From Candidatus Kerfeldbacteria bacterium (lineage in GTDB: Bacteria; Patescibacteriota; Patescibacteriia; SBBC01; CAIJZX01), in contig CAIJZX010000014.1 in NCBI GenBank assembly GCA_903825245.1, forward strand, positions 1,655 through 65,654: 64,000 nucleotides of DNA. Reading direction: 5' to 3'. Shown piece after piece: positions 8,481 through 10,370 of this stretch. The translations under genes and the position numbers were made by a program. The notes beneath the pieces are model-generated. The model ran no database searches. It saw only the letters and a list, made by a program, of their open reading frames with translations, and was not told the origin of the DNA. How positions within the stretch are numbered: the first letter of the stretch is position 1; each line of letters opens with the position of its first letter.

Positions 8481-8530
8481 TTCCATCTTTGTAGTAAGAT
8501 ACGTTTCTCAAATAAATGTGACGAACTGAA

Positions 8531-8573
8531 GGACACGTGGCGCCTGCCTGCCGGCAGGGAATTGGCATACGCA
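8531..8573 (+). repeat. Partial duplicate of the tRNA-Leu 5' end (nt 1-12 and 13-25), split by a 17-nt palindromic insert CCTGCCTGCCGGCAGGG
   Basis: GGACACGTGGCG at 8531-8542 matches tRNA positions 1-12 (8906-8917) with one mismatch. After the insert, AATTGGCATACGC at 8560-8572 is identical to tRNA positions 14-26. The fragment ends 11 nt before the GIY-YIG ATG. Confidence 0.7.
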
Positions 8574-8583
8574 CACAACATCA

Positions 8584-8835
8584 ATGTTCTACGTATACGC
8601 AATAAGTAGCCAGAAAAGAAAATATATCTACGTCGGACTGACCATCGACCTGGTTCGTCGTCTCCACGAGCACAACCATGGTTTTGTACATACAACAAGA
8701 TCGTATGCACCCTTTGACATGCTACTTATTGAAACGCTTCCTAACAGAATTCTTGCCCGACAACGAGAAAAGTTTTGGAAAACTGGGCGTGGGAAGGAAA
8801 TCCTTCGAACCCGAAAAATTCTTAACATCAAATAA
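8584..8835 (+). CDS. Small GIY-YIG nuclease-domain protein (UPF0213/YhbQ-like), 83 aa
   Basis: The N-terminus MFYVYAISSQKRKYIYVGLTIDLVRRLHEHN has the canonical GIY..YIG spacing and the R...E..N motif. The gene lies between the partial tRNA-Leu duplicate and the intact tRNA-Leu. Confidence 0.7.
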   Translation: MFYVYAISSQKRKYIYVGLTIDLVRRLHEHNHGFVHTTRSYAPFDMLLIETLPNRILARQREKFWKTGRGKEILRTRKILNIK

Positions 8836-8905
8836 GGGTCAACTTCATCGCGGCTTGCATATTTAGTCGAAAAAACGTAGTATCTCGTAGTTGGTAAATC
8901 AATTT

Positions 8906-8992
8906 GGGCACGTGGCGGAATTGGCATACGCGCTAGCTTCAGGAGCTAGTGGTCGCAAGACCATGAGGGTTCAACTCCCTCCGTGCCCACCA
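8906..8992 (+). tRNA. tRNA-Leu (anticodon CAG), 87 nt including the encoded CCA
   Basis: Manual fold: acceptor GGGCACG/CGTGCCC, anticodon stem CTAGC/GCTAG with loop TTCAGGA (anticodon CAG), a long variable arm GGTCGCAAGACC, T arm GAGGG-TTCAACT-CCCTC, discriminator A and CCA. It is followed by the hairpin CCTGCCT-ACCAGC-AGGCAGG at 9010-9029. Confidence 0.85.
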
Positions 8993-9074
8993 AAAATAAG
9001 TGACTCCTCCCTGCCTACCAGCAGGCAGGTCTCGCCCACCATCTGTTCAGATTTTTCTTTCTACTGTGGTCGAC

Positions 9075-9677
9075 ATGCTCGGTAAGAATTTCAACACATC
9101 GGATATAACATCCCTCGTTTTTGATTTCGGCGGTGTGCTATTCCCCACTGAACCCTACAGCGGCGGTGAAACATCGCCCGACGATCGGAAGAAAATAACC
9201 GGCGCCGTCAAATCAATCTATAAAGATTTCGGCGCGGATATTAGCCGCAGCGCCTTTTCCGTTCCTCAATTTCGACAAGAATTTACGAATCGCGTGGCTG
9301 GACTATCGCCAACTCGAATCAATATCGTCCTGCAAAGTATTTGCGAACCTGATATTGATGTCATAGAATTTCTACAAACAGCGCACGCCAAATACTCACT
9401 CTATGGCCTCGTCAACGCGCCACTCGGCTGGACAGAAATACGGCGAGGATTGCACCATCTCGATGAGTTTTTTCAGCGCATTGTCGTCTCGCACGAAATC
9501 AATGTGAGAAAACCCGATCCAAAAATATTCGAGTATTTCGTGGAGTCAACAAAGTGCGCGCCATCAACAACAGTATTTATCGACGATAAAGAGCAAAATT
9601 GTGTCGTTGCACGACAGTTGGGTTTTCAAATCCTTCACTTCACAAAACCTGACAATCTTTTCGGGTTGCTAAAATAG
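9075..9677 (+). CDS. HAD-superfamily hydrolase (subfamily IA-like)
   Basis: Motif I VFDFGGVLF, a cap region, and motif IV VFIDDKEQN near the C-terminus. The ATG at 9075 is preferred over the longest start at 9000, which would begin inside the tRNA-adjacent hairpin. Confidence 0.65.
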   Translation: MLGKNFNTSDITSLVFDFGGVLFPTEPYSGGETSPDDRKKITGAVKSIYKDFGADISRSAFSVPQFRQEFTNRVAGLSPTRINIVLQSICEPDIDVIEFLQTAHAKYSLYGLVNAPLGWTEIRRGLHHLDEFFQRIVVSHEINVRKPDPKIFEYFVESTKCAPSTTVFIDDKEQNCVVARQLGFQILHFTKPDNLFGLLK

Positions 9678-9685
9678 CGTTTCTT

Positions 9686-9724
9686 TAGGAAAAATAAAAA
9701 CCGGAGTCGCTTAGGCTCCGGGGG
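9686..9724 (-). terminator. Rho-independent terminator for the 9743..10012 gene
   Basis: On the - strand, the hairpin CCGGAGCCTAAGCGACTCCGG is followed by TTTTTATTTTT and sits immediately after the stop codon. Confidence 0.55.
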
Positions 9725-9742
9725 TTGAAACGTGGTTGACGA

Positions 9743-10012
9743 TTATGCCGCTCTGACTTTTGCCGAAGCAGCTGCCTCTGCTCGCTCACGCACCCGTTGA
9801 CGGTGACCTTTGGCACCCTCATTCCTGGGATCACAGTAGAATTCCAGGGCTTCTTTCTGATCCGGTGAATGGCCGAGTACAAGCCCGGCAAAATACCGAT
9901 TGTCGTCGCCAAGCGCCTCTACAACTTGTTCGAGCAAATCGACCATCTGCTTGAGCTGCCTGTTCTCGCGCTGGAGAGCCTCCACATCAACCAATGGTTG
10001 AGCGGATTCCAC
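9743..10012 (-). CDS. Hypothetical small coiled-coil protein (89 aa, GTG start) in a GC-rich patch
   Basis: GTG start preceded by AAGGAGG at a 5-nt spacing. N-terminal heptad-like VEALQRENRQLKQMVDLLEQVVEAL. Local GC is about 58 %. The gene has its own promoter and terminator. Confidence 0.55.
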   Translation of the reverse strand: MESAQPLVDVEALQRENRQLKQMVDLLEQVVEALGDDNRYFAGLVLGHSPDQKEALEFYCDPRNEGAKGHRQRVRERAEAAASAKVRAA

Positions 10013-10084: not shown

Positions 10085-10370
10085 GTATTCCCATGTTACA
10101 GGCTCATGGCTTGACTAAAAGTCCCATTCATGATAGCCTGTCTGCGCTATCAAAACGTCGTGCTCAGCGATTAGCCAAGCGGTTAATCATTGCGCGTGAC
10201 TCCTCGAGTCGGCTCCGGCTGATCGACGAATCCGCATCCGAATCATCCGTTCTAGATTTCTAGAAATCTGATGATCGTTATCACTCATTACGGTTTTCCG
10301 CACGACCAGCAATAGTCGCTCTAGGCGAACCAGAACAACATCGCATCACCTTCGTGATGCACAAACAGCT

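Follow-up and report, generated by a model that had tools for sequence, protein, structure and literature searches.

How does a small nuclease gene come to lie between an intact tRNA gene and a partial copy of that same gene? This question is raised by a locus in a 64,000-nucleotide (nt) stretch of DNA from a Candidatus Kerfeldbacteria bacterium (the whole stretch is called the window here, and all coordinates refer to it unless a locus label precedes them), in which a gene for an 83-amino-acid (aa) GIY-YIG protein is enclosed by tRNA-Leu(CAG) and by a fragment of the tRNA 5' part, hereafter the fossil, that is itself split by a short palindrome. An earlier note on this DNA had taken the arrangement for the footprint of a mobile or homing-type element at the tRNA gene, a view now supported by empty sites in relatives, by the ancestral position of the fossil, by a foreign open reading frame (ORF) and by recurrence at dozens of tRNA genes. 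We consider it probable that the locus is a mobile mini-element, with a hairpin-associated GIY-YIG nuclease, lying in the 5' part of tRNA-Leu(CAG), the tRNA being kept by duplication. The feature is real and non-random, and comparison of homologous loci lends good support to its mobility.

Insertion of the GIY-YIG unit in tRNA-Leu(CAG)

The locus is made up of the following parts, in which L005, L007 and L008 denote orthologous loci of relatives and SBP the upstream gene for an SBP_bac_5 protein:

8481-8530, plus strand: native 5' flank of the ancestral tRNA-Leu, from the SBP stop codon to the tRNA start (colinear with the L005 and L007 flanks)
8531-8542, plus strand: fossil of tRNA-Leu(CAG) nt 1-12, GGACACGTGGCG, with A3 for G3 (repeat search, family D4; 11/12 against 8906-8917)
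8543-8558, no strand: palindrome H1, CCTGCCTGCCGGCAGG, in the D loop of the fossil (16/20 nt of the family palindrome, truncated)
8559-8572, plus strand: fossil of tRNA-Leu(CAG) nt 13-26, GAATTGGCATACGC (repeat search, family D1; exact)
8584-8835, plus strand: 83-aa single-domain GIY-YIG nuclease gene (Pfam PF01541, E 2e-14)
8836-8905, plus strand: 70-nt spacer from the ORF stop to the intact tRNA, not native tRNA flank (no alignment to the L005, L007 or L008 flanks)
8906-8992, plus strand: intact tRNA-Leu(CAG) (ARAGORN; Rfam tRNA, 56.8 bits)

As the earlier note had described, a partial 5' copy of the tRNA with one mismatch lies 375 nt upstream; it covers nt 1-26 (8531-8572), is identical at 25/26 positions and is split after nt 12. 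GGAATTGGCATACGC at 8558-8572 equals 8917-8931 at 15/15 positions including a shared G (repeat search), and this 15-mer match, which alone has a BLAST E value of 0.004 in 64 kb, is colinear with the other segment. The single substitution in the fossil, A3, abolishes the G3-C70 pair. An insert after nt 12 is likewise present, but it measures 16 nt and is not the perfect 17-nt palindrome that had been claimed: inside it lies a perfect 12-nt palindrome, which can also be drawn as a 4-nt loop closed by a 6-bp stem, and the hairpin has a DNA fold of -5.8 kcal/mol (z -2.8). H1 is a 3'-truncated copy of a perfect 20-nt palindrome of relatives, and its 16 nt form the commonest core of the palindromes found beside homologous ORFs (13 occurrences). 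An Rfam scan of the window returned two tRNAs and nothing else, and a promoter and terminator scan around the element gave nothing useful, a TTGCAT-17-TAGTAT match in the 70-nt spacer falling below threshold.

The direction of the event can be read from the flanking DNA of orthologous loci. The window SBP has relatives in Patescibacteria, the candidate phyla radiation (CPR), at 55-59% identity; exact look-ups of the window GIY-YIG protein and of P0015, an 89%-identical SBP homologue and closest relative, gave no match, so that the nearest comparable loci are those at only 55-59% SBP identity. The order UvrC-SecG-SBP-tRNA-Leu(CAG)-RNase J is conserved, and the distance from the SBP stop to the intact tRNA is 53 nt in L005, 51 nt in L007 and 39 nt in L008. 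All three have neither the GIY-YIG gene nor the 5' copy and thus represent empty sites of the kind that the earlier note had proposed to look for; the target they keep is the same or a related tRNA (the L005 tRNA is identical to that of the window at 87/87 positions), so that presence and absence alternate at a conserved target. The window fossil starts 50 nt past the SBP stop, behind a flank that includes a CGAACT motif common to L005 and L007. Because this native flank is aligned at the fossil and not before the intact tRNA, the fossil marks the ancestral tRNA start, and all sequence from the fossil up to and including nt 26 of the intact tRNA represents an insertion that came with duplication. 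These alignments show that the tRNA gene received an insertion in which nt 1-26 were duplicated, the original 26 nt being those of the fossil.

The inserted gene is intact and encodes a protein in which the Pfam GIY-YIG domain spans residues 1-67 and no second domain is found. All residues that are invariant in the family alignment are kept (Y3, Y5, Y16, G18, R26, H30 and E62), with the catalytic residues intact, and the hallmarks of the GIY-YIG superfamily (GIY and YIG motifs, conserved Arg, His/Tyr and Glu, and a beta-beta-alpha-beta-alpha fold) are all present. The AF2 model (pLDDT 93.4; elements E-E-H-E-H-H) retrieved SLX1 with Foldseek (TM 0.68, rmsd 1.7 A), as well as the I-TevI catalytic domain and UvrC. 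The label "UPF0213-type" that the gene had been given is only loosely right: the UPF0213 protein BH0048 in the PDB ranked top in Foldseek, with a TM of 0.53 and an rmsd of 7.8 A on a nuclear magnetic resonance model, but reached only E 0.19 with phmmer, against E 5e-4 for the sequence match to SLX1, so that by these scores the window protein appears closer to SLX1 than to BH0048. We found no NCBIfam family and no PADLOC match for it, and only a marginal family without known function in PHROGs. The ORF is compositionally foreign: its guanine-plus-cytosine (GC) content and its third-position GC content (GC3) are both 41.7%, compared to a window GC of 50% and a GC3 of 55-61% in neighbouring genes, which places it in the lowest 2.9% of 252-nt windows. 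The gene is single-copy in the 64-kb window, where its neighbours include TruD, UvrC, SBP, HAD, RNase J and a class I tRNA synthetase, among others.

Recurrence beside tRNA genes and the palindrome family

To determine how far this arrangement extends beyond the window, we used a metagenome scan sample of 80 homologous loci. The closest homologues share at most 64% identity with the window protein and come mostly from Bacteroidota, while a profile search gathered at least 6217 clusters that are named just "GIY-YIG nuclease family protein". The remark in the earlier note that small GIY-YIG genes are found beside tRNA genes proved well founded, as 46 of the 80 homologues adjoin a same-strand tRNA. 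In 32 of the 80, the tRNA starts between -38 and +112 nt from the ORF stop (20 at 0-9 nt, with 5 overlapping the ORF), in another 14 a tRNA ends upstream of the ATG at a distance of less than 120 nt, and in at least 4 further loci the contig breaks off within this structure. The upstream 220 nt and the 5' part of the tRNA are linked by exact seeds of 8 nt or more in 27/32 loci; in 23/32, sequence upstream of the ATG matches the tRNA 5' part exactly over 12 nt or more, compared to about 0.001 expected per locus.

The tRNAs that are hit are those for Leu (five anticodons), Arg, Asn, Ser, Pro and Gly, and the layout of partial tRNA copy, ORF and intact tRNA, or its mirror image, is found in Bacteroidota, Ignavibacteria and CPR bacteria. 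The mirror form, with the intact tRNA first, then the ORF and then a 3' copy whose hairpin lies in or at the edge of the T loop, is seen at L021, L035, L050, L053, L086, L094, L097 and L098, and CPR loci of the same form as the window are L100 (Candidatus Pacebacteria) and L049. At L010 of the flavobacterial Leeuwenhoekiella the ORF stops 1 nt before tRNA-Leu(CAA), and an upstream copy of this tRNA, from nt 1 to about nt 46, holds two hairpins, one of which is CCTGCCTCTGCCGGCAGGCAGG; at L016 an exact copy of tRNA-Gly nt 1-26 lies 5' of the ORF. Cultured carriers include Leeuwenhoekiella polynyae, Ekhidna lutea and Flavobacterium azooxidireducens. There was no homologue among PLSDB plasmids and phage records gave only weak partial matches (Rhizobium phages), so that the element is not plasmid- or phage-borne in those collections.

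Several observations accompany this survey. Tandem arrays of the unit, that is of a hairpin-bearing partial tRNA copy with the ORF, occur among L022, L033, L046, L078, L094 and L097. Many contigs stop at or just past the ORF, which suggests that these repeats break metagenome assemblies. In distant relatives of about 40-44% identity (L065, L066, L068 and L070), the ORF lies between 12-20-nt inverted repeats and exactly at the start codon of a host gene, with the start duplicated (L070: ATGATTAA). Other distant relatives are found inside 23S rRNA genes (L069 and L096), and that of L073 splits a tyrosine recombinase ORF.

The palindromes that interrupt the partial tRNA copies have as their consensus the perfect 20-mer CCTGCCTGCCGGCAGGCAGG. 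Their insertions are clean, without target duplication, loss or gain, and are located after tRNA nt 14 or nt 21-23 (D loop) as well as within or at the edge of the T loop, the commonest site being the junction of the D loop with the 3' strand of the D stem. A CCTGCC-type palindrome lies beside 31/42 homologues that are at least 47% identical to the window protein and beside 2/38 more distant ones, compared to 4/4000 in a shuffled-flank control. Distant subclades instead carry GTCGCC..GGCGAC or CCCGCC..GGCGGG hairpins, or the 12-20-nt inverted repeats around the ORF, and protein identity is 0.56-0.58 within and 0.40-0.51 between hairpin classes (three best-sampled classes). Because the palindrome type co-varies with the protein subclade in this way, we infer that the palindrome is the cognate hairpin site of the nuclease.

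A scan of IMG/VR, by contrast, ruled out the idea that the palindrome is confined to tRNA copies. In the viral or proviral contigs of that collection (L101-L135), it mostly lies in GC-rich and often repetitive context, and in L102 and L125 it separates the anticodon arm from the T arm of a tRNA-Met. Of the solo palindromes, 6/40 have flanking direct repeats (6-14 nt) compared to 1.8% of controls; these repeats concern a minority and we did not use them as evidence.

Mechanism, known systems and rival explanations

Which known system comes closest? Full-text literature searches turned up no account of tRNA-nested GIY-YIG genes accompanied by partial tRNA copies that a palindrome interrupts, and the closest described system is Ssn with its NTS repeats. 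Ssn (CDD cd10448) is a single-domain GIY-YIG protein of about 94 aa that binds hairpin repeats flanking its gene and cuts the adjacent single-stranded DNA (ssDNA); its authors pointed out the insertion sequence (IS)-like layout NTS-ssnA-NTS and nowhere mention tRNA (Chenal et al. 2025, Nat Commun, PMC11893778). Like Ssn, the window protein is a stand-alone GIY-YIG domain of less than 100 aa (83 aa here) with no DNA-binding domain, GC-rich hairpins lie on both sides of the gene and hairpin sequence co-varies with the protein; unlike in Ssn, the hairpins are inside partial copies of the adjacent tRNA gene, which the nuclease gene abuts. The locus belongs to a widespread variant, apparently undescribed so far, in which single-domain GIY-YIG elements with associated hairpins are nested in tRNA genes.

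Phage homing enzymes share other properties with it. T4 SegB is a GIY-YIG homing enzyme encoded in a phage tRNA gene cluster that promotes inheritance of the tRNA gene region (PMC2330249). The element resembles I-TevI and SegB in its GIY-YIG catalytic fold and in its selfish presence or absence at conserved RNA genes, but I-TevI and SegB have two domains, exceed 200 aa, cut double-stranded DNA (dsDNA) and do not duplicate their target, whereas here the target is duplicated, a putative cognate palindrome is present and the 83-aa protein ends right after the catalytic domain, with no room for the linker and C-terminal DNA-binding domain of the I-TevI and Seg enzymes. As in REP/BIME-RAYT and IS200/IS605 systems, short palindromes accompany one small nuclease gene, insertions are clean and recognition of a single-stranded hairpin has been proposed, as we also propose here. 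RAYT and IS200/IS605 rely, however, on an HUH/Y1 transposase that forms a covalent intermediate; the sole ORF of the element is the GIY-YIG gene, and GIY-YIG enzymes are hydrolytic and do not rejoin DNA alone. SLX1, the best match of the catalytic domain in both sequence and structure, cuts branched and stem-loop DNA. It differs in being a eukaryotic repair enzyme with a RING domain that depends on SLX4, and not the product of a mobile gene.

By analogy with these systems, an SLX1/Ssn-like nuclease may work together with its cognate hairpin. The nuclease would recognise its own hairpin, probably in ssDNA, and the resulting breaks would stimulate recombination for which the conserved tRNA sequence provides the homology. 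Spread could then proceed by homing-like copying or by ends-in integration of an excised copy, and either route would leave a duplicated target with a hairpin at one junction only. Landing just 3' of the tRNA promoter would allow the ORF to be expressed, and such expression from the tRNA promoter would fit the ORFs that end at or within the tRNA. We place less confidence in the exact route of spread than in the explanation as a whole.

A wider proposal, which we put forward tentatively and hold to be somewhat short of an even chance, is that an 83-aa nuclease and a 20-nt palindrome constitute an undescribed class of mobile element that is hydrolytic, guided by hairpins or structure, and inserts at tRNA stem-loop junctions, with sister clades inserting at 23S rRNA genes and precisely where protein genes start. 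The interrupted 5' or 3' part would be duplicated, which would preserve the host gene and place the nuclease under the control of that gene's promoter, and repeated rounds would swap tRNA alleles and leave the hairpin-riddled fossils of CPR genomes. If true, this would be a very compact mobile element (about 0.3 kb, with one 80-aa protein and one 20-nt palindrome) that is common among Bacteroidota and genome-reduced CPR bacteria, its protein clusters numbering in the thousands. Such an element would explain the small "GIY-YIG nuclease family proteins" beside tRNA genes, account for many bacterial tRNA gene fragments and for the frequent assembly breaks there, and act as a driver of tRNA allele replacement. 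The protein and palindrome pairs would also be candidate minimal sequence- or structure-specific nucleases, a kind of ssDNA reagent whose usefulness the Ssn work has shown, and since cultured hosts carry the element, the system is directly testable.

Several points weigh against a mobile mini-element that acts through its own hairpin. The published Ssn hairpin consensus (SRM) HGTCWYN(0-2)YYVSBRHN(0-5)WNVSBRGN(0-2)RNCYNB has 0 matches in the window and in 0/77 loci, although the regular expression found the NTS control. The exact 20-mer occurs at 40 distinct IMG/VR sites, of which 1/40 has a GIY-YIG gene and a tRNA copy; these sites without the gene imply that the palindrome is also a dispersed repeat that exists independently or with some other partner. 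Hairpin-split fossils are likewise found without a GIY-YIG gene at L001, L002, L003, L005 and L007, where the hairpins are GC-rich. At L025, L027, L028 and L034 the partial copy is unlike the adjacent tRNA, so the structure is not always a simple local duplication, and in the window itself the 70-nt gap between ORF and tRNA and the truncation of H1 are atypical for the family. A restored tRNA is still cuttable by a classical homing enzyme, which leaves simple dsDNA homing without an explanation for immunity. Finally, the proposed mechanism of spread is drawn from analogy.

Could the gene instead serve its host? A domesticated, Ssn-like nuclease might restrict or modulate palindrome-bearing ssDNA, or act on tRNA genes or tRNA, with the tRNA site chosen for expression and the partial copies arising as by-products of nicking. 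Neisseria SsnA does have a host-level role (PMC11893778), the palindrome is found without the gene in viral or proviral contigs, and the ORF is intact and strongly conserved across its at least 6217 clusters. We nevertheless regard a host function as unlikely, given that the gene is missing at the same locus in relatives and is of foreign composition, that it forms tandem arrays and is inserted in many tRNAs, 23S rRNA genes and gene starts, and that PADLOC does not recognise it. Still less likely is a decayed integrase island, in which the tRNA copies would be attL and attR, the GIY-YIG gene surviving cargo and the palindromes recombinase core sites. The element does share with tyrosine-integrase islands and prophages that the tRNA target is kept by a duplicated segment and that fossils pile up at a hotspot; tRNA genes are described as classical integration sites where partial tRNA duplicates are left (Williams 2002, as cited in PMC9897764), L012 has a tyrosine integrase beside the homologue, and the interval from tRNA-Leu to RNase J is variable, with a HAD gene in the window only. 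The direct tRNA repeat expected of a tRNA-integrating element is indeed there, but it consists of nt 1-26, the 5' end, and we found no tyrosine or serine recombinase within about 8 kb of the element. The repeats are only about 0.3 kb apart and enclose the ORF alone (about 260 nt of non-tRNA DNA), this minimal content is the same in dozens of independent loci, and the palindromes lie inside the copy, not at its edge, and track the GIY-YIG subclade.

Two further explanations concern the fossil itself. It could, together with its hairpin, form an RNA-level device in the leader of the GIY-YIG mRNA (a tRNA-like substrate for RNase P, or else a stabilising or attenuating element) for which the duplication was selected. 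ORF and tRNA are on the same strand and often 0-9 nt apart or overlapping, which makes it likely that they are co-transcribed and that RNase P processes the tRNA 5' end. The tRNA-like cap processed by RNase P that the earlier note had envisaged is not supported, however, since the fragment has neither the T arm nor the acceptor 3' strand and gives no Rfam tRNA match at E<=10. Moreover, 8531-8573 folds no better than shuffled sequence (z -0.31), and in mirror forms the hairpin-bearing copy is 3' of the ORF, with no constant position on the mRNA, all of which makes such a device very improbable. Chance similarity, or tandem tRNA duplication and decay unlinked to the ORF, has in its favour only that tRNA duplications occur. 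It is refuted by the recurrence statistics and can practically be dismissed: 25/26 nt are in register at the ancestral position, the same arrangement is found in more than 40 independent loci and palindromes are far above shuffles. A mobile mini-element that duplicates the tRNA part it interrupts thus accounts best for the locus.

Older fossils downstream of the tRNA and neighbouring features

The history of the locus extends beyond the GIY-YIG unit, as a second fossil lies downstream of the intact tRNA:

9002-9009, plus strand: fossil of another tRNA-Leu allele, T-arm 3' strand, GACTCCTC (aligns with the intact tRNA of L008 at its 3' end)
9010-9029, no strand: palindrome H2, CCTGCCTACCAGCAGGCAGG (19/20 against CCTGCCTACCGGCAGGCAGG, a common variant in the family)
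9030-9041, plus strand: fossil acceptor 3' strand with CCA, TCTCGCCCACCA (12/12 against the L008 tRNA 3' end, also against the L007 fossil)

Joined together, GACTCCTC and TCTCGCCCACCA match the intact tRNA-Leu of L008 at 20/20 positions of its 3' end, so that H2 splits the 3' fossil cleanly, with zero bases lost or gained. A palindrome that directly follows the tRNA had been reported in the earlier note; its position at 9010-9029 holds, but it sits inside this fossil of another tRNA-Leu allele. H1, which ends 25 nt 5' of the ATG, and H2, which begins 174 nt 3' of the stop, are the sole matches to the palindrome pattern in 64 kb (at most 0.01 expected). H2 is nonetheless not the simple partner of H1, as it lies in an older fossil that is common to L007, where there is no gene; at the identical position the L007 fossil carries a 30-nt insert, CCTGCCCGCC...GGCGGG. 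We also rejected the idea that the 5' and 3' fossils are halves of one old tRNA, as their acceptor strands GGACACG and CTCGCCC are unpaired and as the 3' fossil is shared with L007, which is without the ORF.

Taken together, the alignments point to a succession of events at this site. An older event left the hairpin-bearing 3' fossil of L008 type downstream of a GGGCACG-type tRNA, an arrangement that is shared with L007 and has another form in L005, and the H2-bearing fossil thus records a separate event at the same hotspot. The GIY-YIG unit was inserted in a more recent event that is seen in the window only, since when the fossil has acquired one substitution (G3 to A) and a truncated palindrome.

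Relatives carry further traces of this kind between SBP and RNase J. Nested fossils of other tRNA-Leu(CAG) alleles surround the intact gene at L001:4268-4600, L002:12020-12345, L003:6860-6995, L005:5975-6100 and L007:5965-6470. In L001 and L002, 5' and 3' fossils with complementary acceptor strands lie on either side of the intact tRNA, the insert edges in L001 being CTGCCCGCC...GGCGGGC, and L003 has a nearly full-length pseudo-tRNA whose T loop is interrupted by about 52 inserted nt. The acceptor stems of the intact alleles vary among relatives, which suggests repeated allele replacement. The "empty" locus of L008 and L009 carries a solitary CCTGCCGGCAG palindrome about 50 nt 3' of the intact tRNA-Leu (L008:5985-5997).

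Two genes between tRNA-Leu and RNase J are found in the window only, namely a HAD-family hydrolase gene (9075-9677) and an 89-aa ORF without Pfam match (9743-10012, minus strand), whereas in L007-L009 RNase J comes straight after the tRNA region; the interval from tRNA-Leu to RNase J (9075-10012) is therefore variable. A 35-nt motif, TGCTCAGCGATTAGCCAAGCGGTTAATCATTGCGC, at 10161-10195, matches no Rfam family. It precedes the start of RNase J by about 175 nt, has been kept in both L007 and L008 even though protein divergence is about 55%, and may serve as a leader element of RNase J.

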